From Candidatus Eiseniibacteriota bacterium (GTDB lineage Bacteria; Eisenbacteria; RBG-16-71-46; CAVPCR01), in assembly GCA_963823555.1 (NCBI GenBank), contig CAWGMA010000004.1, positions 352,001 through 416,000 on the forward strand: 64,000 bases of DNA. The letters are read 5' to 3'. Below, in pieces: positions 10,618 to 35,000 of the stretch (the first letter of the stretch is position 1; each line of letters begins with the position of its first letter). Both the position numbers and the translations under genes were made by a program. The notes beneath the pieces are model-generated. The model saw only the letters and a program-made list of their open reading frames with translations, was not told the DNA's origin and searched no databases.

Positions 10618-10781
10618 GGGGGCGCGGATTCTACTGAGTCGTGGATCCTATCGACAAGAGGTGCTTTGTTGCCCGAGGTCCCGTCCTGAGGCGGCATGCG
10701 GCAGGGAAGCATCAAGCGAACGGGGCCTGCCGGAAGGCAGGCCCCGCCCATGCGAGCACTCTCTCGCGCAGCGAATGCGCG

Positions 10782-12246
10782 CTACTTCGTCGGTGGTGGC
10801 GCCTGCGGCGTCCACCGCTTCCGATGCACCTGCTTCATGGCATCGCTCAGGCGATTGAGGCCTTCGTCCATCTCCTCGTCGGTGATGGCCAGCGACGGCC
10901 TGAAACGCACCCCGGTGGGCCCGGTGGGGATGATGAGCAGATCGCGCTCGAAGGTCGCCTCGAGAAGCTGGTCCCGCGTGGTCCCATCCAGGAGGTCGAA
11001 GGCGCACATGAGACCCCGCCCTCGCGTGTTCATCATGAGGTCGGGGTACTTGCCCTGCAGAGCGAAGAACCCATCCATGAGTTTCTTGCCCTTGACCTCG
11101 GCGTTGGCAACCAGGTTCTCGTCGCGAATGATGCGCAGATATTCGGAGGCGCGGACCATGTCGACGAGGTTGCCGCCCCAGGTCGAGTTGATCCGGCTCG
11201 ACTCGCTGAAGACGTTGTTCTTCACCTCGTCGATGCGGCGCGAGACCATGCATGCCGCAGATCTGCATCTTCTTGCCGAAGCAGATGATGTCCGGCACGA
11301 CGCCGAGGTGCTGGTAGGCCCACATCCTTCCGGTGAGCCCGACGCCGGTCTGGACCTCGTCGAAGATGAGCATCGCCTCGTTCTCGTCGGCGAGGCGCCG
11401 CAGCTCGGCGAAGAACTCGGGCCGGAAGTGGTTGTCGCCGCCCTCGCCCTGGATGGGCTCGATGATGATGGCGGCGATGTCGTCCCGGTGCTCGACGAAC
11501 GCGTGCTCCATCTGGGCGATCGCCAGCTTCTCCGCGTCGATCACCGCATCGAGGTTCTTGCCCTCGAGCGGGAAGGTGATCTTCGGGTTCACCATGCGCG
11601 GCCAGTCGAACTTCGGGAAGTACTTGGTCTTCCTCGGGTCCGCCGTGTTGGTCAGGGAAAGCGTGTAGCCGGTCCGCCCGTGGAAGGCCTGCTCGAAGTG
11701 CATGACCCGGGTGCCGCGTTCCTTGCGGTAACCGTCCGCGAAGTTCTTGCGCACCTTCCAGTCGAAGGCGGCCTTGAGCGCGTTCTCGACGCCGAGCGCT
11801 CCGCCCGAGATCAGGAACAGGTGCGGGAGCTCGGCGGGCATGGCGGTCTTCTCGAGAGTGTCGACGAACTCCGCCATCTCGACCGTGTAGAAGTCGGAGT
11901 TCGACGGCTTCATGAGGGCGCTGCGCGCGAGCTTGGCGATGACGCGAGGTTCGATGAGACGGGGATGATTGAAGCCGATCGGAGCCGAGGCGAAGAACAT
12001 GAAGAGATCGAGGTACTTCTTCCCGGTCGCGGCATCATGGAGCCAGCTGCCGCGGCTCCGATCGATGTCGACCACGATCGGAAAGCCGTCAACGAGGAGG
12101 TGCCGCTTGAGCGTGCCGAGCACCTCGCTCGGATGAATGCCGGGGGGCGTGACCAGTTCCGACGCCGCGCCGGTTGAGATACCGGGAGCGGCTGCCGTCT
12201 TGTCGGTTGCCGACGGCCGCGTGAACGTCGCCGCGTTCTGATTCAT
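10782..12246 (-). CDS. lat: L-lysine 6-transaminase (class III PLP aminotransferase); one apparent frameshift near 11250
   Basis: YLDLFMFFAS, KPSNSDFY, GALGVENALKAAFDWKVRKN, EPIQGEGGDNHF, FDEVQTG, FGKK; the C-terminal half (SRINSTWGGNLVDMVR, RGRGL) continues in ORF 10782..11249. Confidence 0.9.
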
Positions 12247-13936: not shown

Positions 13937-15385
13937 ATGTCCATGAAGTGGTCATTCCAGCGGATTTCCCTTTACCTCGTCACGGCGGGAGCCGTTCTGG
14001 CCGGCGGGTGCACCGACAAGCCAACCGACCCGGGCGACGGCGGTCCCGGCGATGGCACCTACTCCAGCACGGTGCAGCGCATCTTCAATCGAAGCTGCGC
14101 CCTCAGCGGCTGCCACGGGGCGGGCACTCCTGCGGCGGGGCTCGAGCTCACCTCCTGGGAGGACCTGTTCCGGGGGAGCGAGCATGGTGAGGTGGTGGTC
14201 GCCTTCCGGCCCGAGGAGAGCCATCTCGTCGATCACCTGACCGGCGCCGCCGAGCCGCAGATGCCCTACGGTCGCGACCCGCTCCCTGCAGAAGAGATCG
14301 ATCTGATCCGCGACTGGATCGCCGCCGGCGCCCGCAACGACCTGGGGGCTGTTCCATTTGCCGATTCGCGCCAGAAGATCTTCGTCACCAACCAGGGAAG
14401 CGATCAGGTCACCGTGCTCGATGCGGAGGCGCTGGTCACGAGCCGGATCATCGATGTCGGTGTGCTCCCGGATGCCGACTACCCGCACAATGTCTTCGCC
14501 GACCCGCAGGGCGAGCACTACTACCTGAGCCTCATCAATTCGGCACGCATCCTCAAGTTCGACGCCCGGACGGATTCGCTCCTCGGTATCGCTGAGGTCG
14601 GCGAGTCGCCGGCGAACCCGGTCACCTCGCCCGATGGCAAGACGCTCTACGTCACCAACTGGCGGCCCGACAACCCGACGCTGCATGTGCTCGATGCGAC
14701 GACGCTGGAGGAAAGATACATGCTCCGGTTCCCGCTCGCCCTCGGGGCCAGCCCTCACGGTCTGTGCGTCAACGCTGACGGTTCGACCTTGTATACGACC
14801 CACGAGCAGGCAGGGAGCGTCTTCAAGATCCTCCTCGGCGAGACGGCACAGGATGCCGAGCTCAGGTTCATCCCGCTCGATGGCCGGGATACGCAGCTCC
14901 TGCAGCCCCTTCAGGTCGTGCTCGACGCGGACGAGCGGTACGCCTACGTGACGTGCTTGAACTCGGGCCAGGTGCAGGTCATCGACACCGATCTCGAACA
15001 GGTGGTGAATGTGATCGAGATCGGCGGCAATCCTTGGCTGGCTGCGCTGACGCCAGACGGGAGCCGCGTCTACGTGGCCAACTGGGGCAAGAACGCCGTC
15101 GATGTCATCGATACCGGGACGCGGAGTCTGGTCATGACGATCGACAACAGCATGGCCGGCGATCACGGTCCCGTGTTCGCCCGGCCCCACGGCGTCGCGA
15201 TGAGCCACGACGGGCGCTTCGCCTTCGTGTCGAACGAGAACACGAACGGCGAGTACCCCCCGCACCACGGCGGCGAGACGAGCGGGAACGGGAACCTGGT
15301 CGTCATCGAGCTGGCAACCAATCACGTCATGAAGACGATCGAGCTGGAGGTGGATCCCACCGGTGTCGCCTTTGCCGCTCACTAG
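13937..15385 (+). CDS. Lipoprotein: c-type cytochrome domain (CX4CH) plus YVTN/YncE beta-propeller
   Basis: Lipobox LAGGC; IFNRSCALSGCHG...QMP...LIRDWIAAGA (planctomycete-type cytochrome c); repeated FVTN/YVTN/YVAN blades. Confidence 0.8.
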   Translation: MSMKWSFQRISLYLVTAGAVLAGGCTDKPTDPGDGGPGDGTYSSTVQRIFNRSCALSGCHGAGTPAAGLELTSWEDLFRGSEHGEVVVAFRPEESHLVDHLTGAAEPQMPYGRDPLPAEEIDLIRDWIAAGARNDLGAVPFADSRQKIFVTNQGSDQVTVLDAEALVTSRIIDVGVLPDADYPHNVFADPQGEHYYLSLINSARILKFDARTDSLLGIAEVGESPANPVTSPDGKTLYVTNWRPDNPTLHVLDATTLEERYMLRFPLALGASPHGLCVNADGSTLYTTHEQAGSVFKILLGETAQDAELRFIPLDGRDTQLLQPLQVVLDADERYAYVTCLNSGQVQVIDTDLEQVVNVIEIGGNPWLAALTPDGSRVYVANWGKNAVDVIDTGTRSLVMTIDNSMAGDHGPVFARPHGVAMSHDGRFAFVSNENTNGEYPPHHGGETSGNGNLVVIELATNHVMKTIELEVDPTGVAFAAH

Positions 15386-15392
15386 CGCATCG

Positions 15393-16730
15393 ATGAGATG
15401 CGCCGTCATATCGGTGCGGGCGACCGCTTGGGCGCTCTTGCTGCTCGTTGTCGTTGCTGGCTGCGGCGATGACGGCACCTCGCCTCCACCGCCCGAGGGG
15501 CCGCCGTTTCAGCTCACGGATTTCTCCCCGCCTTCGACCTGCGCCGGCTGCCATCCCAATCACTATGCCGAGTGGTCGTCCTCGATGCATGCCTACGCGT
15601 TCAAGGATCCGGTCTTCTTTGCGTTGAACTTCGCAGAGCTCGAGCGGACGAACGGCGACCTCGGCCAGTTCTGCATCGGCTGCCACAGCCCGATAGGCAC
15701 CCTCACCGGCACCACTCCCGATACCCGCTTCGACCCGTCGACCATGCCCGAGGTGGTCCAGGCGGGCATTTCCTGCGATGTCTGCCACTCCATGGTGGCG
15801 GCGGCCCCGAGCGCCACCGAGGATGGCGTGCCTCTCGTGCTCAACCCCGGCAACGTCAAGTACGGGCCTTTACCGGCCATCGACACTGGGCCCGGAGTGC
15901 ACGATACCGAGCAGAAGCTCGAGCTCTTCTCCAGCTCCACCGCCTGCCGTGCCTGCCACAACCTCACCGTGCGCGGCATCGGCATGGAGAACACGTTCGA
16001 CGAATGGGAGAACTCGATCTACGCCTCGCGCGGTGACTCGCACTGCCAGGGCTGCCACATGCCGACCTACGCCGGGCGGGCGGCACTCGGGGGCCCCGAG
16101 CGGCCCAACCTTCACCGGCATTGGTTCGCCGGCGTGGATGTGGCTCTCACCGACTTTCCCGATCACGAGGGCAACGTGGACCGCGTGCGCCAGCTGCTGC
16201 GTGGCGCGGCAAGCCTTGCGGTCCGGGCCCCGGCGGCGGTGGCTCCCGGGGATACCGCCCTGGTCGGGGTCACGGTGACCAACGACCGCACCGGTCACGC
16301 CATCCCCTCGGGAACGAGCTTCTCGCGTCAGATGTGGGTCGAGCTGATCGCCACCGCAGGCGGCGACACGCTCGCCCGTTCGGGGCACCTCGATGCCAAC
16401 GGCGATCTCAGGGATGCGAACTCGGAGCTCGATCCCGACGGCGACCCCGATCTCTTCCTGTTCACGAGCGTGCTCGAGGGGGGTGAGGATGTCACCGTCT
16501 TCACGGCCACCGGCATCCAGGAGTCCTTGCTCCAGCCCTTCGAGAGCCGTACGCGGATCTACCGGGTGGCCGTGCCCGAGACTCAGGCCGGACCGGTCGA
16601 CGTGTCGGTCCGCCTTCGGTTCCGTCCGCTACCACCCTACAAGGTGCGTGCCGCCGGTGCCCCGGAGCTGGTGGCGAGGATCCCGATCTTCGACATGACC
16701 GAGTCCGAGCTCGCGATCGACGTGCGCTGA
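15393..16730 (+). CDS. Pentaheme c-type cytochrome lipoprotein (c554-like)
   Basis: Lipobox VAGC; five CxxCH motifs (CAGCH, CIGCH, CDVCH, CRACH, CQGCH); EWSSSMHA; C-terminal TGHAIPSG domain. Confidence 0.88.
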   Translation: MRCAVISVRATAWALLLLVVVAGCGDDGTSPPPPEGPPFQLTDFSPPSTCAGCHPNHYAEWSSSMHAYAFKDPVFFALNFAELERTNGDLGQFCIGCHSPIGTLTGTTPDTRFDPSTMPEVVQAGISCDVCHSMVAAAPSATEDGVPLVLNPGNVKYGPLPAIDTGPGVHDTEQKLELFSSSTACRACHNLTVRGIGMENTFDEWENSIYASRGDSHCQGCHMPTYAGRAALGGPERPNLHRHWFAGVDVALTDFPDHEGNVDRVRQLLRGAASLAVRAPAAVAPGDTALVGVTVTNDRTGHAIPSGTSFSRQMWVELIATAGGDTLARSGHLDANGDLRDANSELDPDGDPDLFLFTSVLEGGEDVTVFTATGIQESLLQPFESRTRIYRVAVPETQAGPVDVSVRLRFRPLPPYKVRAAGAPELVARIPIFDMTESELAIDVR

Positions 16731-16915: not shown

Positions 16916-18287
16916 ATGGACTATCCAGTCTGGGATGTGGCGATGGGCGGCTCGGTCCTCATGGCGGTCGTCGCCATCACCCATGTCATCGTCTCGCATT
17001 TCGCCGTCGGCGGCGGTCTGCTGATCGCCGTGACCGAGACCCTGGCCGTGCGCCGCGGCGACTCGGCCTTCCGCGATCTGGCCCGGCGTTCTTCGCTCGT
17101 CCTGATCCTGGTCTCGACCGTGTTCGGTGCCATCAGCGGCGTCGGTGATCTGGGTCGTGGCCGGCCTCATCTCGCCCGCGGCCATCGCCGCGCTCATCCG
17201 CAATTACGTCTGGGGCTGGGCCATCGAGTGGGTCTTCTTCATCGTCGAGCTCGTCGCGGCGCTGCTCTACTTCGCGACCTGGGACAAGATCACGAAGCGG
17301 CCCACCTGCACTGATCTGGATCTACTTCATCGCCGCCTATGCTCTCGCTGGTCGTCATCAACGGCATCATCACCTTCATGCTGACCCCGGGCCAGTGGCT
17401 CGAGACGCGGGCCTTCTGGGACGGGTTCTTCAACCCGACCTACTGGCCGGCGATCGTTCTGCGCACCGGGATCACCCTTCTCATGGCCACTGCGTTCATG
17501 GGTCTGGTCGCCACTCGCGCCGAGGCGACGGCGCGGCCGCGGCTCGCCCGTTACCTCGGCTTCTGGCTCGTCGCCGGCGTGCTCGTCGCGTACGCCGGTT
17601 TCCGCTGGTGGGAAGGCGCGCTTCCAGAGGCGGTGCGCGCGCTGTTCCTCGGTGACGCCCCCAAGCTCTGGCCACCCTGGCCGCAACTCGCCACTTCCTG
17701 CTGTGGGCGCTGACCGCCACGCTCGGGTTCGGTGTCATCTTCTTCGTTCTTGCCCCCCGGACCGCGCGTGTGGTGCCCGCTGTTCTCGTCATGATCGCCG
17801 CATTCGCTTTCTTCGGTGGCTACGAACGGCTCCGGGAGGGCGCGCGCAAGCCGTTTCTGATCCACGACTACATGTTCTCCAACGGGATACGCATCGACGA
17901 GATCACGAGCCTCAACGACCTCGGGGATTCTGTCGCGCGCCGGCTTCGGTGCGGCTGCGGTGGCGGCCGACCCGGCGGTGCGCGGGCGTGCAGGTCTTCC
18001 GCGCCCAGTGCGCTAGCTGTCACACGATCGACGGCTACCAGGGGATCCGCGCGCTCCTGCCGGAGGATGCCGGACATGATCGAGGGTGTGCTCGGCATCA
18101 TGCGCAGCAGGGCGAGACGATAGCCGCCTTGCCGCGTACCGAGCCCATCGACACGAGCCAGCTCGACTACCCCTTCATGCCGCCATTCGTCGGCACCGAG
18201 GAGGAGATGCAGGCGCTCGCCCAGTACCTCGCGAGCGTCGCGGCGAGTTCCGGGCCGGCAGTGGCCGAGAGAGGAGGTGCGCATTGA
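16916..18287 (+). CDS. CydA-like (cytochrome bd superfamily) membrane subunit with C-terminal heme c; several frameshifts
   Basis: Pieces in ORFs 16916, 17127, 17339, 17770 and 17652 join as MDYPVW...HVIVSHFAVGGG...GVG.W...WAIEWVFF...INGIITFMLTPG...FFNPTYWP...ERLREGARKPFLIHDYMFSNG...CASCH...MPPF. Confidence 0.72.
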
Positions 18288-19393
18288 ACCCGAATCTGAT
18301 CCCGGCGCTCGATCCGACGCCGATCCCGGGACCGACCTGGCTCTTCCATGTGCTGCTCGTGTTCACCTTCTTCCTGCATGCCCTCTTCATGAATCTGGCG
18401 CTCGGTGGCACGCTGCTCGCCGCCTCAGCGCAACTCGGCGGTCAGTCGCCGATGAGAATGACGCTCGCGCGGCGGCTCATGGGGGTCAATGGCTACGGTA
18501 TCTCCTTCGCCATCACCACGGGGATCGCCCCGCTGCTCTTCGTTCAGCTCCTCTACCAGCAGTACTTCTACGCGGCGACCATCTTGATCGGGGAGGCCTG
18601 GCTCCTGCTGGTGGCCCTGCTCATGGTCGGCTACTACGCCGTCTACGTGTACAAGTTCAAGGGTGCTCCCGCCCGCGGCACCGGTGGCACGGGATGGCTC
18701 CTGATCGCCGCGGTGCTCTTTCTCATCATCGCCATGGTGCACGTGGCCGTCCATCTGATCCATGTCCAGCCCGGCAAGTGGGCGGCCATGGCCGCTTCCC
18801 CGTGGTCGGTGCTCGGCGATCCGACGTATGTCGCGCGACTCCTGCACTTCGTCCTGGCCGCGCTCGGGTTCAGCGCGCTCGTGATGGCCTGGTGGGCCGT
18901 GCGTGAGGCGGGCCGGGGTCGGGATGTGGAGCTCAACACGGCGATCGCGCGCTACGCCTGGAAGTGGGCGCTGTGGACCACGCTCCTCCAGGTGCTCGAT
19001 GGCTTCGTGCTCGTCTTCGTCCTCCCGCGCGAGGTGTTGCTCGGATTGATGCGTGCGGGAGCGCCGACGCTGGTGCCGTTGACGGCTTCCATCCTTCTCG
19101 GACTCGGACTCCTGATGATGCTGGCCCGGGTCTCGAACCCGGTCGAGAAGCCGGGGCTCGTCACCGGCACCCTCGGTGCCATGGTCCTCACCATCGGGGT
19201 CATGGCCATCACCCGGCACCAGGTGCGGGAGCTCTATCTGGCGCCGTTCACCACGGGGGTGACCATCCCGGCGGCGCCGCAGTGGGGTAACTTCCTCCTC
19301 TTCGTGCTCCTGTTGCTGGCCGGACTCGCGACCGTGGCCTACATGATCCGCCTCGTCAACACGTCCCGGGCGACGGGTGGGGAGGCGGCGTAG
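18284..19393 (+). CDS. Polytopic membrane partner subunit of the CydA-like protein
   Basis: GGAGG RBS, TTG start overlapping the upstream TGA; about 9 hydrophobic helices; TFFLHALFMN, GIAPLLFVQ, RLLHFVL, RHQVRE. Confidence 0.7.
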   Translation: MNPNLIPALDPTPIPGPTWLFHVLLVFTFFLHALFMNLALGGTLLAASAQLGGQSPMRMTLARRLMGVNGYGISFAITTGIAPLLFVQLLYQQYFYAATILIGEAWLLLVALLMVGYYAVYVYKFKGAPARGTGGTGWLLIAAVLFLIIAMVHVAVHLIHVQPGKWAAMAASPWSVLGDPTYVARLLHFVLAALGFSALVMAWWAVREAGRGRDVELNTAIARYAWKWALWTTLLQVLDGFVLVFVLPREVLLGLMRAGAPTLVPLTASILLGLGLLMMLARVSNPVEKPGLVTGTLGAMVLTIGVMAITRHQVRELYLAPFTTGVTIPAAPQWGNFLLFVLLLLAGLATVAYMIRLVNTSRATGGEAA

Positions 19394-19400
19394 CCCGGCG

Positions 19401-20606
19401 ATGCCGACGATGGTCCTCAGCGAGCTACACACGATCATCCTTGGTCTGCTCGCACTCATGCTCGGTCAGTTCGTCGCCGGGCGGGTGGCGGTCCTGCGCC
19501 GCCTCAACGTGCCGGTGCCGGTGGTCGGCGGTATCCTGGCTTCGCTTGCGCTCACCGCCTTTCGTGCCGCCACCGGGATCGAGGTGACCGTGGCGGGTGA
19601 GTTTCGCGACATCCTGCTTCTCGTCTTCTTCACCACCATCGGGCTCTCGGCCAAGCTCTCGTCGCTCAAGACCGGTGGCAAGCCGCTCCTCATCATCTGC
19701 GGCGTGACGTTGATCCTGCTCGTCTTGCAGAATGTCGTGGGCATCGCCATCGCCCTGGCGCGAGGCGCGCATCCCTTCTACGGTCTCCTGCTCGGCAGCA
19801 TCTCGTTCGTCGGGGGCCCAGGGACGGCGCTGGCCTGGGCCCGGGAGGGGCAGGCGATGGGACTCCGCTATGCCCCCGAGGTCGCCTTGGGTACGGCCAC
19901 GCTGGCCGTGGTCAGCGGCGCCGTCGTGGCCGGCCCCATCACCGGGTGGCTGATCGGCCGGCACCGCCTTCGGTCATCGGCCGCTCCCTCCGATATCGCC
20001 TGGGCCGGTGCGGCCAAGGAAGCGCCGGCGCCCGCCGCGTCCCTCGAGCAGATCATGCGCACCATGCTGCTCGTCGCCGTCGCGGTTGCCATCGGCGAGT
20101 GGCTCAACGAATGGGCCCAGCGGGCCCATTTCGTCCTGCCAGGTTTCCTCACGGCCATGCTGGGCGGCGTGCTCATCTCGAACGTGTCCGATCTTCTTGG
20201 CAGGCGTCTCGACTTCGGCCCCATCGAGCGCGGGGGCGAATGGGCGCTGCAGCTGTTCCTGGTCATCAGCTTGATGGGTCTCAAGCTGTGGACTCTCGCC
20301 ATTGCCGCCGGCCCGCTCCTGTTCAATGTGTTGGCGCAGATCGCCATCACCACGCTCGTGGCGGTGGGATTGCTCTTCCGCCTTCTCGGGAGGGATTACG
20401 ACGCGGCGGTCGCCAGCGGGGGGTTCCTCGGATTCGGCCTGAGCTCGATGCCGGTCGCGCTCGCGACGATGGATCAGGTCAGTCTCCGCTTCGGTCCCGC
20501 CCCCCGGGCGTTCCTGCTCATCACGCTCGCCGGATCGTTCTTCGTCGATCTCGCCAATGCGCTCGTGACCAAGGCTTTCCTGCTCTTGCCGATCTTCGCG
20601 CGGTAG
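19401..20606 (+). CDS. gltS: Sodium/glutamate symporter
   Basis: VPVPVVGG, LLVFFTTIGLSAK, GSISFVGGPGT, GRDYDAAV...GFGL, GSFFVDLANA. Confidence 0.85.
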   Translation: MPTMVLSELHTIILGLLALMLGQFVAGRVAVLRRLNVPVPVVGGILASLALTAFRAATGIEVTVAGEFRDILLLVFFTTIGLSAKLSSLKTGGKPLLIICGVTLILLVLQNVVGIAIALARGAHPFYGLLLGSISFVGGPGTALAWAREGQAMGLRYAPEVALGTATLAVVSGAVVAGPITGWLIGRHRLRSSAAPSDIAWAGAAKEAPAPAASLEQIMRTMLLVAVAVAIGEWLNEWAQRAHFVLPGFLTAMLGGVLISNVSDLLGRRLDFGPIERGGEWALQLFLVISLMGLKLWTLAIAAGPLLFNVLAQIAITTLVAVGLLFRLLGRDYDAAVASGGFLGFGLSSMPVALATMDQVSLRFGPAPRAFLLITLAGSFFVDLANALVTKAFLLLPIFAR

Positions 20607-20613
20607 CGCTTGT

Positions 20614-23600
20614 TCAACCGGCCTCGGATCGGAACCGACGGTGACGGAGGAAGGGGTCGAGCACGCCTTCGAGCACGCGGTCGAGGCGGCCGCTCCTGAG
20701 CCCGGAGTCGATGTCCCGGACCTCCGGCGAGGGACCGAGGATGTAGCGGCGGACCATGCGATCGGCGGCCGGCTCGATCTCGGCCGCGCGACCGGCGGCG
20801 ATGGCGGCGCGCACCGTGACCAGCTCGATGAGATGGCGTTCGAGGCGTTCGGGCGTGAGGGCGCTCGTGCCGGCAGCGAGCGTGAGCGTCGGACCGTGGG
20901 CCACCTCGACCCGGGCCACGGGCTCGGGCACCAGGAGTCCGTGGCGCTCTTCCGGCGGACGCCGGCGGCAGGTGATCTCACCCGGTGCCACATCGAAGTC
21001 GATCATCTCGGGGGTCGGGAGGACGATGGCACGGACGAGATCGGTGTGGGCGGGCCGATCCCCGACGCGCCTCTCGACGAAGGCGTGGAGGCCGGACTCG
21101 CCGTTCAGGAGCCCGTAGACGCAAGTGCCCTCGATGAGGAGCATGGCCGATCGCATCTCCTCGCCATCCATCTCCTCATCGAGGACATGGACGGTGAAGC
21201 GCCAGCGCTCGGCCCAGGCCATGAACATGCGCGCGAGCCGATGGGCCGAGTTCCCGTCGCCGGTCCCGAGCGCGGTCACCTTGATGAAGGCATCGCTCGC
21301 CTCGTGCGGAGCGCGGAGCCCGAGCGCCATCCCCGCCAGATCGGCTTCGAGGCGGATCTCGGCGTAACGCTCCGCGGCCTCATGACTGCGCTCGCCGTCC
21401 AGAGGCCTGGCCTCCAGATAGGCGCAGAGGTCGTGGGCTCGCTTCTGTGCCCGCCTGAGCATCGTCTCGATGCGATCGACTCGCTCGAGAGCCGCGAAGG
21501 TCCGGCGCGCCGTCCCCGGTCGGTCCCACAGCCCGGGCGCGCGCGCCGCTACCGAGAGCTCGGCCTTCTCTCCCGCCAGCTCCCGCTCGAAGATCGCCGC
21601 CGCCTGGTCGACCTCGGCCGCCATCTCCGTCGCCCGCGCCCTGAGCTCATCGGCGGTCAGGCGCTCGCGCGCTCCGAGCAGGCGGTCCGTGATCTCGACC
21701 GCACTTTCCTCGACCACGGGCCTCTCGAGATCACGCTCGGTGAAGAGCAGAACCTGCACTTCACCGCGTTCCAGCTTGAGGAAGGCCAGGGCTCCGGACG
21801 CTTCCTCGCCGCGGTCGACGATGGCCCGGGCCAGAGGAGTCAACACCTTCTGCTCGATGACGCGCTTGAGCGGGCGGGCGCCGTATTCCGGGGAGAATCC
21901 CTGCTCGATGAGGAAGCGGAGCACCTCGGGGTCGACCTCGACCATGAGGCCGCGCCGGAGGATCCCGTGGCGTTCGAGGTGGGCGGCGAGCTCCTTCTCG
22001 GCGATGCGCTGCATGACGCCGAGATCCAGCGGGGAGAAGGTGATGACGCGGTCGATCCGGTTCAGGAACTCGGGGCGGAAGAAGCGCTCGACTTCCCGCC
22101 TGGTGCCGGCATCGATGGGGGCGGGCGCGAATCCGGCGCGCGGCGCGCCGCCGGAGCCGAGGTTGGAGGTCATGATGATGAGCGTGCCATGGAAGTCCGC
22201 GCCCTGACCGCGCGCATCGGTCAAGTGGCCGGCATCGAAGACCTGGAGGAAGAGATCGAACACGTCAGGGTGCGCCTTCTCGAACTCGTCGAGCAGGACG
22301 ACCGCGAAGGGTGCGGCCCGCACCCGCGCGGCCAGGGTCACGGCGCCCTTGTCCGCCCACGGTCCCTGGCTCCCGATCAGTCGCTCCAGGCTCTGGGGCG
22401 ACTGGAACTCGCTCATGTCGAAGCGGAGGAGGCGTTCGTCGCTGCCGAAGAGCGCGGCGGCCAGGGCCCGCGCCAGCTCCGTCTTGCCGACCCCGGTCGG
22501 GCCGGCGAAGAGAAAGACGCCGAGCGGTCGTCCGGGATCGGTGAGACCGGCCTTGAACAGCGCAATGCGGTCGACGAGGACCTCGATGGCTTCATCCTGG
22601 CCGAGCACGCGCCGCCGGAGAGCTTGCCGGAGCTCCCGGCGGTCGAGATGCGCGCGGTCGTCGACGAGGACGGGGGGAATGCCGGTTCGCCGCGCCACCG
22701 TCTCGATGACCGCCGAACGATCGAGCTCGAGCGCCGCGCCCGGCGGCAGGCTGTCGACTTCCGCCGCGGCGCGCGCCGCCACTTCGCGGAGGAGCGATAA
22801 GCTGCGCCCGGGAGCGGACATTCCCGGGGCGAACATGCGGCCCGAGGAGAGGATCGTGGGCACGAATTCCGTATCCACCCGCACCTCACGGCCGACCCCC
22901 TGCGCAAGCTCCGCGGTCAGGTCGGCGAGCACGGACTCGACGATCGCTCGCTCGGCATCGGCGGCGGGGGCCTCGAGGCGAATCGGCTCGAAGAGGTCGA
23001 GGATGCGCGGATCGCGGCGCAACCCCCGCTCGAGCTCCTCGGGAGTGGACTCGGCGAGAATCGCGATGTCCCCCCGGGCGATGCGCGGTGCGAGCAGGCT
23101 TCCGAAGTGCTCGTCGGGCTGATCCCAGGCCCGTCCCGCGTCGAGCAGGTTGTTGGCATCGGGCAGGAGCCACAGCACGGGCTTCGGTCGAGAGATCTCG
23201 TCGACGAAGGCCAGGAGCCGCGTTTGCCACTGACCGATGGCGAACGTGCCGCGGAGGAGATCGCCGGTCGCCACCTCGACCACGACCGGCGGATCGGGAT
23301 CCCGCGCGACGAGGCGCGCCGCCAGGAGCAGGGCGGTCGTCTTTCCCGAGCCATGCGGGCCGATGACGAGAACGCTGCGTCGTCCGCCGCGCTCGAGGAC
23401 CTCGGCGATCAAGCGGGCCGTGTCCTCGACACCGTGCGCCGCGGGCAGGCGGTCGAGATCGAGAACCCGTCCGAACTCGGCGAGGAGGTCCGCTGCCGGG
23501 CTCGTGGCCACCCGGCGCGCCAGGACCGTCTTGAGCCGGGCGAGGCCCGGGTCTCGCTCCCGCACGCCGAGCGCGGTCACGAGCTCGCGCGCCCGGGCCA

Positions 23601-24225
23601 GGGGGATCGCGGTCACGATCTCCTCGATCTCGTGCTCCGCCGCGGTGGCGAGCGCTGGGCCGGCGCTCTCGTTGATCTCTCCGAGCATGAACTCGATGAG
23701 CATCGGATCGTCGGTGCGGGCGCGGGTGAGGATGCGCCCCAGCCGGACGCCGCCGGCTTTCGCGATCGGTCGGATCGAGATCATGTCGGTCCAGCTCGCC
23801 GCCCCATCGAATCGTTCCCCGAGGAGATCGAGGTCCGCCGGTTCGGCTCGGCGCGCCAGCGCGATCGTGGCCAGGGTCTTGAGCCCCCAGTCCTCGCCGG
23901 CGAAGGCCTCGGCGATCAGCGCGGTGGGCGCCTCGGCCACGAGCAAGTTCGCGAGGCGGACCATGATGGGCGCGGCCGCCAACTGCTGGTAGCTCTCTGC
24001 CTCGCCGTACACCTTGGCCAGTTCCTCGCGATCCCCGGCGCTGATGAGATCGGAGAGGGAGGCGGGAGCTGCGGGCACTGCGCTGGGCGGCGGCTCCGGT
24101 GGGCGGGGGAAAGGACGTCTGGGCTCCCTCGGCGTCGGCGGCGGCAGGGGCTCATCCCAGTCGATTGTGCCCCCGGTGAGCCGGTTCCACGCGGCGCTCA
24201 GGAGAGAGATCAATGCCCAGAACAT
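20614..24225 (-). CDS. ClpA/ClpB-type double AAA+ ATPase fused to a release-factor-2-like (PCRF) C-terminus
   Basis: Walker A GPHGSGKT and GPTGVGKTELA; RFDMSEF, VVLLDEFEKAH, FRPEFLNRID, YGARPLKR; then LWDRP, LARMFMAWAE, YGLLNGESGLH, VRRYILGP...VLEGVLDPFL. Start at 24225 or 24270. Confidence 0.85.
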   Translation of the reverse strand: MFWALISLLSAAWNRLTGGTIDWDEPLPPPTPREPRRPFPRPPEPPPSAVPAAPASLSDLISAGDREELAKVYGEAESYQQLAAAPIMVRLANLLVAEAPTALIAEAFAGEDWGLKTLATIALARRAEPADLDLLGERFDGAASWTDMISIRPIAKAGGVRLGRILTRARTDDPMLIEFMLGEINESAGPALATAAEHEIEEIVTAIPLARARELVTALGVRERDPGLARLKTVLARRVATSPAADLLAEFGRVLDLDRLPAAHGVEDTARLIAEVLERGGRRSVLVIGPHGSGKTTALLLAARLVARDPDPPVVVEVATGDLLRGTFAIGQWQTRLLAFVDEISRPKPVLWLLPDANNLLDAGRAWDQPDEHFGSLLAPRIARGDIAILAESTPEELERGLRRDPRILDLFEPIRLEAPAADAERAIVESVLADLTAELAQGVGREVRVDTEFVPTILSSGRMFAPGMSAPGRSLSLLREVAARAAAEVDSLPPGAALELDRSAVIETVARRTGIPPVLVDDRAHLDRRELRQALRRRVLGQDEAIEVLVDRIALFKAGLTDPGRPLGVFLFAGPTGVGKTELARALAAALFGSDERLLRFDMSEFQSPQSLERLIGSQGPWADKGAVTLAARVRAAPFAVVLLDEFEKAHPDVFDLFLQVFDAGHLTDARGQGADFHGTLIIMTSNLGSGGAPRAGFAPAPIDAGTRREVERFFRPEFLNRIDRVITFSPLDLGVMQRIAEKELAAHLERHGILRRGLMVEVDPEVLRFLIEQGFSPEYGARPLKRVIEQKVLTPLARAIVDRGEEASGALAFLKLERGEVQVLLFTERDLERPVVEESAVEITDRLLGARERLTADELRARATEMAAEVDQAAAIFERELAGEKAELSVAARAPGLWDRPGTARRTFAALERVDRIETMLRRAQKRAHDLCAYLEARPLDGERSHEAAERYAEIRLEADLAGMALGLRAPHEASDAFIKVTALGTGDGNSAHRLARMFMAWAERWRFTVHVLDEEMDGEEMRSAMLLIEGTCVYGLLNGESGLHAFVERRVGDRPAHTDLVRAIVLPTPEMIDFDVAPGEITCRRRPPEERHGLLVPEPVARVEVAHGPTLTLAAGTSALTPERLERHLIELVTVRAAIAAGRAAEIEPAADRMVRRYILGPSPEVRDIDSGLRSGRLDRVLEGVLDPFLRHRRFRSEAG

Positions 24226-24330
24226 CGGCGGCCCTCGCGCGCTCCATCGAATGACCAGGGCAAGACACACTCGACTCTATGCCGCCGCCCGGCAAAAGAC
24301 AAGAAGATGAGATTCAAGGAGGTCGGGCTG

Positions 24331-25695
24331 TCAACGCAGGTACGGCAAGAAGAGACTGGCCAGGCTCAAGAGAATGAAGAAGCCGCTCATGTCGGTGATC
24401 GTGGTCAGGATCGGTCCCGAGGCCAGGGCGGGGTCCTTGCCCAGCCGGCGCAAGAGGAGCGGGACCGTGCCGCCGATCGAGACCGCGATCATGGTGTTGA
24501 CCGCCATGGACACGCCGACCAGGACCCCGAGGAGAGGGTTGCCCTTCCAGGCCAGGGCCACGATTCCCAGGAGGATGCCGAGGACGATGCCGTTGATCAC
24601 GCCCACCGAGATCTCCCGCCACCAGACGTGGGCCACTTCCCGCGGACCGACGAGGCCCAGCGAGAGCTCGCGCATGCTCACGGCGACCGCCTGGTTGCCC
24701 GAACAACCGCTCATATCGGAGATGATCGGGAGGAAGACCGCGAGCGCGATGACCGCGGACAGCGTGTCCTGGTGCATGGCGATCACGCTCGCTGCCAGCA
24801 CGTTGAGGAGGATATTGACGCTCAGCCAGGAGAGCCGGCGGCCCGAGCGGACGTGAACCGGCATGCTGCGCAGCTCCTCGCCGCCGACGATACCCTGGGA
24901 TTTGCGGTAGTCGCTGTCGCTGCGATCGGCGAGAGCTTCCTCGAGATCCGCCCGCTGCACGACTCCCAGCAGGTGGCCTTGCGGATCGACGACCGGGACG
25001 CCGACGAAGGGATGGCTGTCGAAGAAGTCGCGCACCTCGTCGAGGGTCGCATCGACCGCGACGGTGAGCGGCTGGTCGATCATCAGCGCCCGGAGCGGAC
25101 TCTCCTTCGGGGCGAGCAGCAGGTCCCGCATCTTGAGCACGCCGACCAGGCGGCCGTCCGCCGCCGTCACGTAGGCGTACTGAACGTCATAATCGCGATA
25201 TTCATCAGCCCGCTCCCGCAGATCGTGGATGACATGGGAAGCGGTGGCTGTCTCCGCGTAGCTCAGGTACTCGGTGACCATGAGCCCGCCGGCGGTGTCA
25301 TCGGGGTAGCGGGCGAGTAGGCTGGCTTCCCGCGCTTCCTCGGGATCCATGGCCGAGAGGATCGCCTGCGCCTCGCTTGCGCCGAGATCGCCGAGCAGGT
25401 CGGCCCGCTCGTCGCTTGGCAGCTCCTCGATGATGGCCGCTGCATGCTCGGGGCCGACGCGTTCGAGGATCTCGACGGCCTCGGACTCCGGCATCTGCTC
25501 GACCAGATCGGCGGCATCGGTGGGATCGATGGTCGTGAGCAGGCGTTGCTGCTGCTCCCGGTCGAGACGCAGGACGGCTCGCACCGCTTCGTGGACCGGC
25601 AACGAATCCAGGAACGCGGCCGCGGACCTTTCGCCCTCTTCGTGCAACAGGTGCTCGAGCTCGTCCCATGGGCGCTGATCGTGGACATCCGCCAT
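24331..25695 (-). CDS. mgtE: Magnesium transporter MgtE
   Basis: YPDDTAGGLM, two CBS domains, RRLSWL, DMSGCSGNQA, DPALASGPILTTITD. Confidence 0.95.
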   Translation of the reverse strand: MADVHDQRPWDELEHLLHEEGERSAAAFLDSLPVHEAVRAVLRLDREQQQRLLTTIDPTDAADLVEQMPESEAVEILERVGPEHAAAIIEELPSDERADLLGDLGASEAQAILSAMDPEEAREASLLARYPDDTAGGLMVTEYLSYAETATASHVIHDLRERADEYRDYDVQYAYVTAADGRLVGVLKMRDLLLAPKESPLRALMIDQPLTVAVDATLDEVRDFFDSHPFVGVPVVDPQGHLLGVVQRADLEEALADRSDSDYRKSQGIVGGEELRSMPVHVRSGRRLSWLSVNILLNVLAASVIAMHQDTLSAVIALAVFLPIISDMSGCSGNQAVAVSMRELSLGLVGPREVAHVWWREISVGVINGIVLGILLGIVALAWKGNPLLGVLVGVSMAVNTMIAVSIGGTVPLLLRRLGKDPALASGPILTTITDMSGFFILLSLASLFLPYLR

Positions 25696-25806
25696 GCCTG
25701 GCCTCCTCGGTTGACACAAAGCGTCAAGACGGCACGATCCTAGCAGGAGGCGCCAGCGGCAGGGCTGATGGTTGGCGGAAAGAAGGGACGGCGGAGGTAG
25801 GAAGGA

Positions 25807-26382
25807 TCAGCGGACGGGCCGGGCATCCTCCGTTCGCGCCATCTCGGCCCCCATCTCGAGGCCGAGCGCGAACGCCTTTAGATTCAACTCCTCGGTGCCC
25901 TTGGGCACGCGATCACGGATCGCCTGCCGCACAGCATCCTCGCTCACCAGGTGCGCCGCGCGCGCAATCACGCCGAGCGCGACGATGTTGCCGACGATGG
26001 CTCGCCCGAGCTTCTCCTTTGCGCTCGAGATGATCGGCAGGCTCCATACCCGTTCGTGCGCGGGCGGCAGGTTGGTCACGGCCGCCGAGTCGACGAGCAG
26101 GATCCCGCCGGGCTTCAGATCCCGCGCGTAGCGGTTGCACGCTTCCTGGGTCAGGGCGAGGAGGAGATCGATCGCGGTGGCTTTGGGGAAATCGATCTCC
26201 TGATCTGAGAGGATGACCTCCGAGCGGCTGGCGCCGCCACGGGCCTCGGGCCCGTAGGACTGGCTCTGCGTGGCGTTGATCCCGTCGTAGATCGCGGCGG
26301 CTTCGGCCAGGATCTTGCCGGCGAGAACCAGGCCCTGGCCACCCTCACCGCTCAGCCGAATCTCGTAGCGAAATCCCATCAT
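25807..26382 (-). CDS. korC: 2-oxoacid:ferredoxin oxidoreductase gamma subunit
   Basis: EIRLSGEGGQG, QSQSYGPEARGGASRSEV, NIVALG; ATGA overlap with the beta-subunit stop. Confidence 0.92.
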   Translation of the reverse strand: MMGFRYEIRLSGEGGQGLVLAGKILAEAAAIYDGINATQSQSYGPEARGGASRSEVILSDQEIDFPKATAIDLLLALTQEACNRYARDLKPGGILLVDSAAVTNLPPAHERVWSLPIISSAKEKLGRAIVGNIVALGVIARAAHLVSEDAVRQAIRDRVPKGTEELNLKAFALGLEMGAEMARTEDARPVR

Positions 26383-27311
26383 CGTTCCCAGGCCAGGGCC
26401 CCGTACAGGCTCTGGCTCGACTCGCTGCCCACTCCGGCGATGGCGGTGCCGACATCCCGTGCCGGGAGTTCCGGCATCGCCTTGCCGTCGTTCTTCAAGC
26501 GCTCGACGATCTGCTCGTAGAGCTCCGTGTACTCGGGCTTTTCGATATCGGCGAGGATCCCGGTGATGAACTTCCCGGCCAGCTCCTCGGACTTCATGGT
26601 CTTCGCCCGCTGGATGTCGATCGAACGGTCCTTGATCCACATCATCTGGTCGATCGGCTGGCCCATCTTGTTCTGCCGGCCAAAGGCAGTCGGGCAGGGG
26701 GAGATGGCCTCGATCAGGGAGAAGCCCTTCTTCTGGATCCCCTTCTCGATCATCTGGCGAGAGCTTGACCGGGTTGGTGACCGTGCCGCGGGCGACGAAC
26801 GAGGCGCCGGCGGCGATCGCCAGTCCCGAGATGTCGAACGACGGCTCGAGGTTGCCGTAGGGCGCGGTGGTGGCCGGCTCGCCGAGCGGTGTCGTCGGCG
26901 ACACCTGGCCGCCGGTCATGCCGTAGATCCAGTTGTTGAACAGGATGACCGTCAGGTCGATGTTGCGGCGGGCGGCGTGGATGAAGTGGTTGCCGCCGAT
27001 CGCCGTGGCGTCGCCGTCGCCGGTGACCACGATCACCGTCAGGTCCGGGCTGCGCCATCTTGACGCCGGTGGCGAAGGCGATCGCCCGGCCGTGGGTGGT
27101 GTGCAGCGTGTTGAAGTCGACGTAGCCCGGGGCGCGGCTCGAGCAGCCGATGCCCGATACCATCGCCACCTCGTCCTTCGGTCGAGCCCAGATCGCTCGA
27201 TGGCGCCGCAGCATCGCCTTGAGCACGATGCCGTGACCGCAGCCCGGGCACCAGATGAGCGGGAACTGCTCGAGTCTGCAGGTACTGGTCGTAGTCGATC
27301 ATCTCCGGCAT
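26379..27311 (-). CDS. korB: 2-oxoacid:ferredoxin oxidoreductase beta subunit (frameshifted in this assembly)
   Basis: WCPGCG, SGIGCSSR, HTTHGRA, TPP motif GDGDA...NN, YGMTGGQ.SPTT, SPCPT spread over four ORF fragments. Confidence 0.88.
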
Positions 27312-27326
27312 GGCAGCTTCACCTCG

Positions 27327-28524
27327 CTAGCGAGCCGCGATCTCGCGGATCTGGTCCAGCACCTGTGCGGGCGGATCGGCTCGCCGTCGACCCGGGTCAG
27401 GCGATTGCACCTCGGGCCTGGCGCCCCACCGCCCACTCCACCTCGTGGGCCATCTGCCCGAGGTTCATCTCCGGCACGAGGATGTGGTCGACCCGCTCGC
27501 CCATCCGCGCGCACCTGCGACCTCAGGGAAGGGCCAGAGGGTGAGCGGGGCGCAGGAAGTCGACCGGGATCCCCTCCTCGCGGGCCATGCGCACCGCCTG
27601 CAGGGCCGAACGCGCGCGTCGAGCCGTAGGCGAAGACGCCGATCTTGGCGCCCGGGCACGAGCTGCTCGTCGACCTCGATGATCTCCTCGCGTAGCGCTC
27701 GATCTTGCGGTCGAGCCGGCGCAGGAGGCCGTCGATCTCCGCCGGATCGTTGGTCGGGAAGCCGGTCTCGTCGTGGACGAGCCCGGTGACGTGGAAGCGG
27801 TAGCCGCGTGCCGAAGGTGGCCATCGGCGGGCATGTCGGTCGTCGGTGTGCGCGTAGGGCAGGTAGCTCTCCGGCGGCACCTCGGGCTGGGCCCGCTCGA
27901 GAACCGTCACGCGCTCGGGCAGGACCACCTTCTCGTTCACGTGCCCGACGATCTCGTCGAGCAGCAGGATGACCGGCGTCCGGTAGATCTCGGTCAGGTT
28001 GAAGGCGCGCACCGTCAGGTCGAAGGTCTCGCGCACGCCCCGCGGGCAGAGCGCGATGATCGGATGGTCGCCGTGCGTCCCCCAGCGCGCCTGCATCACG
28101 TCGCCCTGTGCCGGGCAGGGTCGGCAGTCCGGTGCTCGGGACCGCCGCGCTGGACGTTGACGATGACGCAGGGGACCTCGGCCATGCAGGCGTAGCCGAT
28201 GTTCTCCTGCTTGAGCGAGAAGCCCGGACCGCTGGTGGCGGTCATGGCCTTGGCGCCGGCGAGCGACGCCCCGATGACCGCGCCCATGGCGCCGATCTCG
28301 TCCTCCATCTGGATGAAGCTGCCGCCGACGCGGGGCAGGGCTCCGGAGAGCATCTCGGCGATCTCGGAAGAGGGTGTGATGGGATAGCCGGCGAAGAAGC
28401 GGAGGCCGGCGGCAAGCGCCGCCTCGGCGCAGGCCTCGTTGCCGGTCATCACGCGAACCCGGCCCTGTGCGCGTTCGGATTTGGCCTTCGGGTTTGACTC
28501 TGCGTTCACCTCGGTCAGCGCCAT
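27327..28524 (-). CDS. korA: 2-oxoacid:ferredoxin oxidoreductase alpha subunit (frameshifted in this assembly)
   Basis: GNEACA, AGYPITPSSE, QMEDEI, TATSGPGFSL, WGTHGDH, FHVTGL.HDETG; TAG at 27327-27329 followed by the korB RBS. Confidence 0.88.
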
Positions 28525-29441: not shown

Positions 29442-30974
<1,533 letters not shown>

Positions 30975-34140: not shown

Positions 34141-35000
34141 CCGACCGCTGCTACTTCGTTTCGGATCTGCATGGCCGGCGGGATCGCTACGAGAAGCTGT
34201 TTGCCGCCATCCGCGGCCGGCGGCCCGCGGGCGTGTTCCTCGGCGGGGACCTCCTGCCGTCAGGCGTCTTCCTCGCCGGAGGGGGCGCCGACCCCGAGGA
34301 CTTCGTCTCCGGCTTTCTCGCCGCCGAGTTCAGGAGCCTGCGCGCCGAGCTCGGCGCCGGCGCGCCGCGGGTATTCGTCATCCTCGGCAACGATGATCCG
34401 CGCCGCGAGGAGGAGGGGGTCCTGGCGGCCGCCGCCGCCGGGGTCTGGGAGTACGCGCACCAGCGCCGGACCCAGTTCGGGAGCCACCTCGTCCTCGGCT
34501 ATGCCTGCATCCCGCCGACTCCGTTCCTGCTCAAGGACTGGGAACGCTACGATGTGTCCCGGCACGTGGATCCTGGCAGCGTGTCGCCGGAAGAAGGATG
34601 GCGGACGACTCCCGCCGAGGCGCACGAGCTCAGATACGGCACCATCCAGAAGGACCTCGAGGCCCTCGCCGGCGCCGAGGATCTGTCACGAGCCGTGTGT
34701 CTCTTTCACTCGCCGCCCTACCAGACGCCGCTCGACCGCGCCGCCCTCGACGGCATGATGGTGGAGCACGTCCCGCTGGATGTGCACATCGGGAGCATCG
34801 CGATCCGCCGCTTCATCGAGTCGCGGCAGCCGCTCCTCACGCTGCACGGCCATGTGCACGAGTCGGCGCGCCTGAGCGGGGCCTGGATGGCACGCCTGGG
34901 CCGGACCGTTTGCCTCTCCGCGGCCCACGACGGCCCCGAGCTCGCCCTCGTCGAGTTCGACCTCGACGATCCGGCCGGGGCCGAGCGTCACCTGCTCTAG
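34137..35000 (+). CDS. Metallophosphoesterase (calcineurin-like, Icc-related)
   Basis: SDLHG, GGDL, GNDD, HSPP, LHGHVHE; GTGA overlap with the upstream gene. Confidence 0.9.
   Translation: MTDRCYFVSDLHGRRDRYEKLFAAIRGRRPAGVFLGGDLLPSGVFLAGGGADPEDFVSGFLAAEFRSLRAELGAGAPRVFVILGNDDPRREEEGVLAAAAAGVWEYAHQRRTQFGSHLVLGYACIPPTPFLLKDWERYDVSRHVDPGSVSPEEGWRTTPAEAHELRYGTIQKDLEALAGAEDLSRAVCLFHSPPYQTPLDRAALDGMMVEHVPLDVHIGSIAIRRFIESRQPLLTLHGHVHESARLSGAWMARLGRTVCLSAAHDGPELALVEFDLDDPAGAERHLL

Follow-up and report, generated by a model that had tools for sequence, protein, structure and literature searches.

A Clp-type ATPase fused to a degenerate release factor 2 homologue: an apparently undescribed bacterial protein family

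Gene and protein organization

In this study, a gene of unusual composition was analysed within a 64,000-nucleotide stretch of a Candidatus Eiseniibacteriota genome (contig CAWGMA010000004.1 of assembly GCA_963823555.1), hereafter called the window. The gene is a single open reading frame (ORF) on the minus strand, running from an ATG at 24225 to a stop codon at 20614–20616 and encoding 1203 amino acids (P0001); an alternative GTG start, located upstream at 24270, would give a product of 1218 amino acids. The protein consists, in this order, of a helical N-terminus, two Clp-type AAA+ modules (D1 and D2) and a C-terminal homologue of peptide chain release factor 2 (RF2). A preliminary description, made from the sequence alone, had proposed a Clp/Hsp100 ATPase fused to an RF2 homologue, and this was borne out, as both parts lie in one ORF, the AAA+ and PCRF domains are recognised by Pfam and the fusion is conserved. 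The gene comprises the following features:

20614..24225, minus strand: whole ORF, 1203 amino acids (ORF call and full-length homologues from independent assemblies)
23461..24225, minus strand: N-terminal region, approximately residues 1–255, with a short hydrophobic/amphipathic helix, a proline-rich linker and a probably helical domain (without Pfam match)
22726..23463, minus strand: AAA+ module D1, approximately residues 255–500 (motif parsing)
21811..22640, minus strand: AAA+ module D2 with ClpB_D2-small, approximately residues 529–805 (Pfam and motif parsing)
21301..21648, minus strand: RF2-like domain 1, helical, approximately residues 860–975 (RF2 alignment and tail profile)
21010..21300, minus strand: RF2-like domain 2, approximately residues 976–1072 (RF2 alignment and tail columns)
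20791..21009, minus strand: degenerate RF2 domain 3, approximately residues 1073–1145 (RF2 alignment and profile comparison)
20641..20760, minus strand: RF2-like domain 4, approximately residues 1156–1195, with RRY, VRD, GR and VLEG (conserved tail columns)

The Pfam matches are AAA_2 (residues 566–726), ClpB_D2-small (734–805) and PCRF (887–1048; 49.2 bits, cut-off 24). The preliminary description had suggested a search for both PCRF and RF-1 domains; PCRF was found, and RF-1 (PF00472) was absent from the 25 best Pfam families shown for the protein, the tail alone matching PCRF only. The NCBIfam model of prfB scored 77 bits (cut-off 370) and that of prfA 28 bits, both far below their cut-offs. 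The ClpB equivalog scored 315 bits against a cut-off of 1232, and the protein remained below one third of both the ClpA and the ClpB cut-offs. Since it fails the defining tests of both groups, the protein is a member of neither RF2 nor ClpA/B/C. No Pfam family, and hence no Clp_N repeat domain, was found on 23500–24270; the N-terminal helix reaches a top 19-residue hydropathy of 0.89, with which a membrane span is not clear. Neither a sigma-70 promoter nor a terminator was found at 24150–24450. No RNA holder was listed for the gene, a negative that carries no information about its expression.

The assembly probably carries indel errors. Frameshift-split copies of clpP, clpC and rplK occur elsewhere in the genome (G000:C1:1585667-1586208, C1:1069025-1070053 and C3:540704-541090), and broken genes are therefore not to be taken as pseudogenes. 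These breaks are what could be said for regarding the fusion itself as an assembly chimera or a decaying pseudogene, an explanation so improbable that it was set aside. A chimera without homologues, which the preliminary description had named as fatal to its proposal, was looked for and is not what was found: three homologues with the same architecture and 63–66% tail identity were found in other assemblies, the same search yielding nine further, more remote homologues. In addition, public short contigs without differences, from a run that may be the source sample, cover 21616–21795 and 21390–21570 at the ATPase-to-tail junction, and 100 of 162 family proteins have at least 850 residues, the D2 Walker A motif being present in 96 of these 100.

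The RF2-like tail

Comparison of the last 378 residues with PDB entries (phmmer) aligned tail residues 64–369 with Escherichia coli RF2 (1gqe; E 9.9e-14), and a profile of 19 tails matched RF2 across its residues 5–358 (E 9e-43), confirming that the tail follows RF2 from end to end. The absence of the GGQ and SPF motifs was likewise upheld by alignment, in which GGQ pairs with H1095-G1096-L1097 (HGL, 20935–20943), the length of the domain 3 loop being unchanged, and SPF with R1053-V1054-G1055 (RVG, 21061–21069). The Trp switch loop preceding domain 4 (residues 315–323 of E. coli RF2) is deleted. According to the sections of the structural papers available, A1492 stacks on Trp319 of this loop in RF2 (PMC5378476, PMC6561943).

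In total, 187 family sequences were collected, and the 175 with complete tails were aligned. Three sub-types can be distinguished: (i) type A, in which domain 3 is deleted (138 tails), (ii) type B (33 tails) and (iii) the window's branch, of which four proteins are known; domain 3 is kept in degenerate form in the 37 tails of the last two. The columns of the Trp switch loop (366–375) are gaps in 99–100% of tails, glutamine is not within the three commonest letters at the GGQ column, and the alpha5 tip and the SPF loop are not conserved, with indels in both regions. In domain 2 of the window protein, core residues are kept (M1000, E1043-G1045-H1047) and RRHTS is not conserved; the 'HT' listed in the preliminary description is present in the window, but the three closest homologues carry QRT or QRS instead. 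Domain 1 contains an RF2-type (F/L)W motif and the family-specific K887, R905 and D917-R918. The RF2-type tryptophan of this domain (W900) occurs in 95% of tails and in none of 11 RF1s. RF2 domain 1 is described, in the excerpts at hand, as contacting the L11 stalk and bL12 (PMC5378476, PMC6076264); no paper naming the tryptophan itself as the L11 contact was found, and this link is not claimed. As to domain 3, that of the window protein alone scores −0.6 bits against a canonical domain 3 profile, a value reached by 71 of 385 scored shuffles, and a profile of the 37 domain 3-bearing members matches canonical domain 3 with an hhalign probability of 88.7% (E 2.6e-6). Its homology therefore rests on position, ungapped length and the 37-member profile, the single-sequence score not rising above shuffles.

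New conserved residues of the tails lie in domain 1 (the four named above) and in domain 4 (RRY, VRD, GWRTGR). Mean identity within type A is 41% in domain 1, 38–44% in domain 2 and 69% in domain 4, as compared with 28%, 61–70% and 64%, respectively, among 12 diverse RF2s. Judged by these values, constraint has moved, in relative terms, off the decoding face onto domains 1 and 4. The tail thus resembles RF2 (PrfB; TIGR00020; PF03462 + PF00472) in having domains 1–4 in the same order, with 21 core columns shared, and differs from it in lacking GGQ, SPF, the alpha5 tip and the Trp switch loop and in standing behind two AAA+ modules. All tails form one clade branching off RF2 (100/100), not off RF1, in a tree of 59 rows that include 16 of the 138 type A and 20 of the 37 domain 3-bearing members. 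Alignments and tree show that the tail is of RF2 origin and that its motifs for stop-codon reading and peptidyl-tRNA hydrolysis are gone.

A paralogue with the same losses is known. The preliminary description was right about the missing motifs but overlooked chloroplast PrfB3, an RNA binder that does not terminate translation. According to the portions of the reports that were accessible, PrfB3 is an RF2 paralogue that lost SPF and GGQ and binds the 3' untranslated region of petB mRNA (PMC5897788, PMC3555233). It is a stand-alone plant protein without an ATPase, and the losses presumably occurred independently. The tail could, by this precedent, be an RNA-binding module working off the ribosome, which would bring the ATPase to a specific mRNA, tRNA, small RNA or ribonucleoprotein for remodelling or turnover. 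We regard this as unlikely, although PrfB3 is the top feature-based Atlas match of the tail (score 0.90), all decoding-site contacts are lost and conserved arginines have been gained (RRY, VRD, GR). The Atlas score is borderline and may reflect only shared degeneration, no conserved neighbour suggests a target RNA, and domain 4 of the window's branch is not more basic.

The ATPase modules

ClpA and ClpC are class-I Hsp100 ATPases that dock on ClpP. The family resembles them in its two AAA+ modules, in D2-small, in the intact catalytic motifs of D2, in that a ClpB middle domain was not seen and, for most relatives, in an [LIVM]G[FL] loop, and it differs from them in that no Clp_N was found, the D1 Walker B is dead, GYVG is missing and the D2 modules form one clade separate from ClpA, ClpB and ClpC (SH-like approximate likelihood ratio test (SH-aLRT) 99–100; quick trees, in one of which two long outgroup rows were left out). 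For the ClpB middle coiled-coil, PF17871 and PF23569 were missing from the precomputed domains, though present in ClpB matches.

In the window protein, D2 carries an intact Walker A (GPTGVGKT, 22480–22503), Walker B (VVLLDE with the DE pair, 22285–22302), sensor-1 (N688), arginine finger (R723) and sensor-2 (GAR), and its GYVG pore loop is replaced (22336–22371). D1 retains Walker A (GPHGSGKT, 23338–23361), has VLWLLPDA instead of Walker B (23155–23178) and shows alanine at the aromatic position of the pore loop (GTFAIG, 23233–23250). The preliminary reading of these motifs (D2 Walker A and B intact, D1 Walker B degenerate, GYVG replaced) was thus correct throughout. Across 109 de-duplicated proteins of at least 1000 residues, the D2 Walker A, Walker B DE, sensor 1, arginine finger and sensor 2 are 98–100% conserved; the D1 Walker A lysine is kept in 96%, and the D1 Walker B position shows a W-x-x-P-D/N/E pattern, with proline in 88%. 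GYVG was found in D2 in none of the 81 loops that could be parsed (28 of 109 could not), and ClpA/B/C controls have it. The motifs indicate that D2 is catalytically intact and D1 hydrolysis-dead.

The aromatic residue of the D1 pore occurs in 78 of the 89 loops parsed among the other 105 proteins and in none of the four of the window's branch. We take [LIVM]-G-[FL] to be the ClpP-docking motif. A loop of this kind is present at the ClpP-docking position in 88 of the 105 relatives outside the window's branch, and therefore most of the family probably couples to ClpP, through an unusual pore. All four members of the window's branch have AGF instead (22129–22137 in the window), in a loop two residues shorter than the canonical one; the ClpC of the same genome carries LGF at this position and its ClpB has no such loop. 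Docking of ClpP through IGL loops is described in the available part of PMC7112952. As the window's branch lacks both aromatic pore loops and a canonical ClpP loop, threading of polypeptides is unlikely; the window's form probably does not thread and a classical unfoldase is doubtful. Of the 'ATP-driven remodeller' proposed earlier, the catalytic D2 thus stands, but remodelling by threading probably does not.

Distribution and sub-types

Proteins of this family are routinely mislabelled as ClpA, ClpB or ClpC. In the phylum, 40 of 206 genomes contain a tail-profile match above 160 bits, as compared with at most 141 bits for canonical RF2; the profile seeds include 7 of these 40 genomes, and one genome without a match (G053) contributed its RF2 as one of the 29 canonical alignment rows. 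The 26 loci that were cut out have frames of 867–1743 codons in all cases, 23 of them matching the D2 Walker A pattern. A library clustered at 50% identity gave 526 proteins at E <=1e-30, which may include true RF2 and of which the best 150 were viewed, and a single motif search of species genomes gave 209 stretches, 175 of them confirmed as relatives. Among the 80 of these 175 shown, Acidobacteriota, Ca. Eisenbacteria, Actinomycetota, Planctomycetota, Gemmatimonadota, Spirochaetales, and Alpha- and Gammaproteobacteria are represented; cultured hosts include Lysobacter silvisoli and Solirubrobacter species. The survey of the fusion and of GGQ loss called for by the preliminary description therefore shows both to be widespread. 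Metagenome scans for the window's branch gave none in 236, then four relatives among the 597 matches listed, all of type A.

The gene is an extra paralogue, since its own genome also encodes RF1 and RF2, the motifs of both being intact; in addition, there are an NFACT/RqcH gene and an RF-1 domain protein of ArfB size, and nothing in this genome reached the cut-off for RF3. Two canonical PCRF genes accompany the family gene in 10 of 10 genomes checked (typed by motif, RF1 in 10 and RF2 in 8). The frame of the genome's own RF2 (L002:1399-2505) opens near residue 25 and lacks a start codon there, which would fit either the programmed prfB frameshift or a slip in the assembly.

Among full-length type A proteins, 54 of 70 reach an N-terminal 19-residue hydropathy of at least 1.6; no type B protein does (0 of 17), and in the window's branch one does (1 of 4). 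These values indicate that type A is usually membrane-anchored; type B carries N-terminal HEAT repeats. The window protein combines the type A layout (hydrophobic helix, proline-rich linker) with a full, type B-like tail. In the tail tree its branch is sister to A+B (99/95), in the D2 tree it joins type A (89, unstarred), and approximately unbiased (AU) tests reject neither window+B (p 0.161) nor window+A (p 0.262). The window's branch was considered as the earliest of the family, and in view of the AU tests and the D2 tree this was not upheld. In the simplest reading, GGQ was lost first and domain 3 was deleted later.

As far as the searched literature goes, with most subscription journals outside its reach, no description of the fusion was found, in agreement with the preliminary description. 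The accessible text of a release-factor survey (PMC6514570) does not mention it, the accessible part of its supplement containing none of the words 'Clp', 'PCRF' or 'ATPase', and 'AAA' and 'Clp' are likewise not found in the available text of PMC12829566. The family therefore appears to be widespread in bacteria and undescribed. Four points are new in the present analysis: the division into three sub-types, the degeneration of the pore and ClpP loops in the window's branch, the alternative drawn from PrfB3 and the link to MXAN_4823 given below.

Relatives in myxobacteria

A search with D1 recovered myxobacterial ATPases of the same clade. These belong to a myxobacterial and wider sister group (P0168, P0171, P0174, P0176, P0200-P0240) with another N-terminus and a more decayed RF2-like tail. 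A tail profile of the P0171/P0201 group matched RF2 with 89% probability (E 2.2e-6; reversed control 3.7%) and the family tail with 95% probability (E 2.5e-8; reversed control 0.4%). Significance was reached only in the profile-profile comparisons, and not when single myxobacterial tail sequences were compared with the family profile.

The 90% cluster of P0201 includes ABF91057.1, annotated as 'ClpB family protein', which is MXAN_4823 of the genetically tractable Myxococcus xanthus (Table S1 of PMC11423568). Its group lies in the same ATPase clade as the family (SH-aLRT 100), with 36% identity across the ATPase part. MXAN_4823 shares the D1/D2 signature and, by profile, an RF2-like tail; it differs from the window protein in being remote, in its N-terminus, in a more decayed tail without domain 3 and in belonging to a three-gene operon. 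The RF2 likeness of this tail is not recognised in those parts of the Myxococcus literature that were searched.

According to the data available from PMC6617876, MXAN_4823-4825 are upregulated after 8 h of chloramphenicol (log2 fold changes (log2FC) of 3.57, 2.67 and 2.61) and in chloramphenicol-adapted cells (1.47, 2.17 and 1.92), and the operon is among the 101 genes up in both conditions. This gives weak, indirect support to a role in translation stress.

Possible role on the ribosome

The reading that we prefer, to which we give slightly less than an even chance, is that of a Clp/Hsp100-derived ring ATPase whose dead RF2 tail would act as a targeting arm, docking on ribosomes under translation stress without regard to the codon. 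The ATPase would assemble as a hexamer, and the tail, in a compact RF2-like shape, would dock at the A-site entrance with the codon unread. Contact would be made through domain 1, the part touching the L11 stalk in RF2, and through the conserved core of domains 2 and 4, and the ribosomes targeted might be stalled, vacant or damaged. ATP turnover in D2 would toggle ribosome binding or pull a bound factor, and in most relatives ClpP would be recruited through the [LIVM]G[FL] loop, so that proteolysis would follow. Because the ClpP loop and both aromatic pore loops are lost in the window's branch, a switch or a remodelling role without threading would be likelier there than an unfoldase.

Counted in favour of this ribosome-docking arm were the RF2 ancestry, the intactness of D2, retention beside RF1 and RF2 and across many phyla, the constraint on domains 1 and 4, the RF2-type tryptophan of domain 1, the basic domain 4 of types A and B (mean charge +2.6 and +3.6, respectively, vs −1.9 in RF2), the precedent of PrfH and the induction of MXAN_4823. 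PrfH, as presented in the accessible portion of the preprint, contains an RF2 fold domain re-surfaced to recognise rRNA without mRNA (bioRxiv 2021.09.22.461353). PrfH-RtcB, ArfA-RF2 and ArfB are all comparable to the tail in that an RF2-type domain works without stop-codon reading, but they keep GGQ, release the peptide and lack an AAA+ motor. A release-factor homologue coupled to an AAA+ ATPase is also seen in Vms1/ANKZF1 with Cdc48, and inactive baeRF-1 and Dom34, which lack the glutamine, have been proposed as A-site blockers in the available text of PMC6514570. These are separate polypeptides of the unrelated aeRF-1 fold, and the analogy is functional only.

Several observations weigh against docking on the ribosome. 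Of the 106 columns conserved among the 12 RF2s, only 21 persist in 80% or more of the tails, and 76 persist in less than 30%. The kept ones (W900, M-Y, E-G-H, R-Y, V-x-D, V-x-x-G) look like the core of the fold, and the lost ones include the alpha5 tip, where variable insertions occur, SPF, RRHT, the GGQ loop and the Trp319 switch loop. As the alpha5 tip, SPF loop, RRHT and switch loop are the grips on the decoding centre, the tail would be at best a loose, codon-independent A-site mimic; of the 'non-hydrolytic A-site mimic' proposed in the preliminary description, the loss of the hydrolysis motifs holds, but mimicry is weaker than thought. The window's branch shows no basic shift in domain 4 (charge −0.2), and the acidic charge of domain 1 is lost in the tails (about 0 vs −10.9 in RF2). 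The case of PrfB3 shows that an RF2 paralogue deprived of SPF and GGQ can come to work away from the ribosome. The chloramphenicol response belongs to a remote member of the family, and 625 genes are up at 8 h, the ordinary ClpC among them (log2FC 1.19), according to the available data (PMC6617876). No conserved neighbour across phyla was found in 106 loci (4860 ORFs clustered), which show lineage-level synteny only, and between the window and the locus in a same-genus genome only the gene itself matches, without synteny. Finally, in a planctomycete protein (L190, G208:C1:158983-162480) whose D2 nests in type B, an unrelated basic tail of about 200 residues replaces the RF2 module.

This replacement bears also on another explanation, improbable to about the same degree as RNA binding, namely that the RF2 fold now serves within the protein as an arm for regulation or protein binding, much as the ClpB middle domain or an adaptor-binding domain does, with its conserved residues packed on the ATPase ring or on a protein client and with no part in translation. 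A fold-core pattern of kept residues with family-specific new ones would suit such an arm, as would the exchange of the tail for another in at least one member, its more advanced decay in the myxobacterial group and the swapping of N-terminal modules (membrane anchor, HEAT repeats, other domains). It accounts less well for the retention of a 350-residue, multi-domain RF2 shape, including the domain 1 tryptophan, across many phyla, and the response of a relative to chloramphenicol is in keeping with translation stress.

The ribosome-docking arm, if real, would have wider consequences. In all known bacterial rescue factors of the RF2 fold, GGQ is retained and the peptide is released; a fold kept with its chemistry dropped and an AAA+ motor added would amount to a novel mode of action on the ribosome. 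The parts of the protein are known ones, and an action on the ribosome, should it be demonstrated, would make it categorically new. More tentatively than the docking itself, and with the chances distinctly against it, we suggest an undescribed, ATP-driven machine of ribosome quality control or hibernation: a pseudo-RF2 would bind stalled or damaged ribosomes and bring a Clp-type ring to them, joined by ClpP in most members and located at the membrane in type A. Such a machine would be the bacterial equivalent of Vms1-Cdc48, combined in one chain, and the window's branch would represent its conservative form, with all four RF2 domains. Alternatively, the family would be the second case, after PrfB3, of an RF2 fold leaving the ribosome.

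Genomic context

The immediate neighbours of the gene are as follows:

24331..25719, minus strand: mgtE, magnesium transporter, upstream neighbour (its place next to the gene is not shared by the same-genus genome)
19377..20606, plus strand: gltS, sodium/glutamate symporter, convergent neighbour ending 7 bases from the stop codon (not conserved beside the gene)

One apparent conserved partner was rejected, being frameshifted pieces of the gene itself. PADLOC reported only generic partial AAA matches over D2, with no full system protein and no conserved partner, and none of the 133 pattern matches in viral contigs is a relative. These results bear on the thought that the tail is a decoy for phage proteins, toxins or peptides that target RF2, which the ring, with ClpP in most members, would destroy or whose capture would trigger defence. 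A patchy distribution (40 of 206 genomes) without a fixed neighbourhood, sensor-like N-terminal modules (membrane anchor, HEAT) and a pseudo-enzyme retaining shape rather than chemistry would agree with it. Even so, we hold it to be the least likely of the functional explanations considered, as the clusters listed contain no recurrent defence-gene neighbour, the PADLOC and viral-contig results are as stated, and a decoy would be expected to keep the RF2 surfaces, which are lost.

In one genome (G079, L040:5276-8720), a serine-recombinase-like ORF and a tRNA-like sequence, judged by eye, are found close to the family gene, possibly marking an integrated element. In the window, the gene of the ribosome-splitting GTPase HflX (9193–10617, minus strand) is located 10 kb away, and it is not a recurrent neighbour among the clusters listed. 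Genes split by frameshifts also occur in the window, at 10648–12246, 16916–18287 and 25807–28524; they are an aminotransferase, cytochrome-like genes and a 2-oxoacid:ferredoxin oxidoreductase cluster, all three named by eye. The window also encodes an NADP-glutamate dehydrogenase (29502–30974, plus strand) and two proteins of 993 and 1066 amino acids (31159–34140, plus strand, and 34997–38197, minus strand) with partial phosphoenolpyruvate synthase-like domains far below family cut-offs. A multiheme cytochrome c-like lipoprotein with a weak ExtKL match (43.5 bits, cut-off 250) is encoded at 15363–16730 on the plus strand, downstream of a beta-propeller/cytochrome-like gene.

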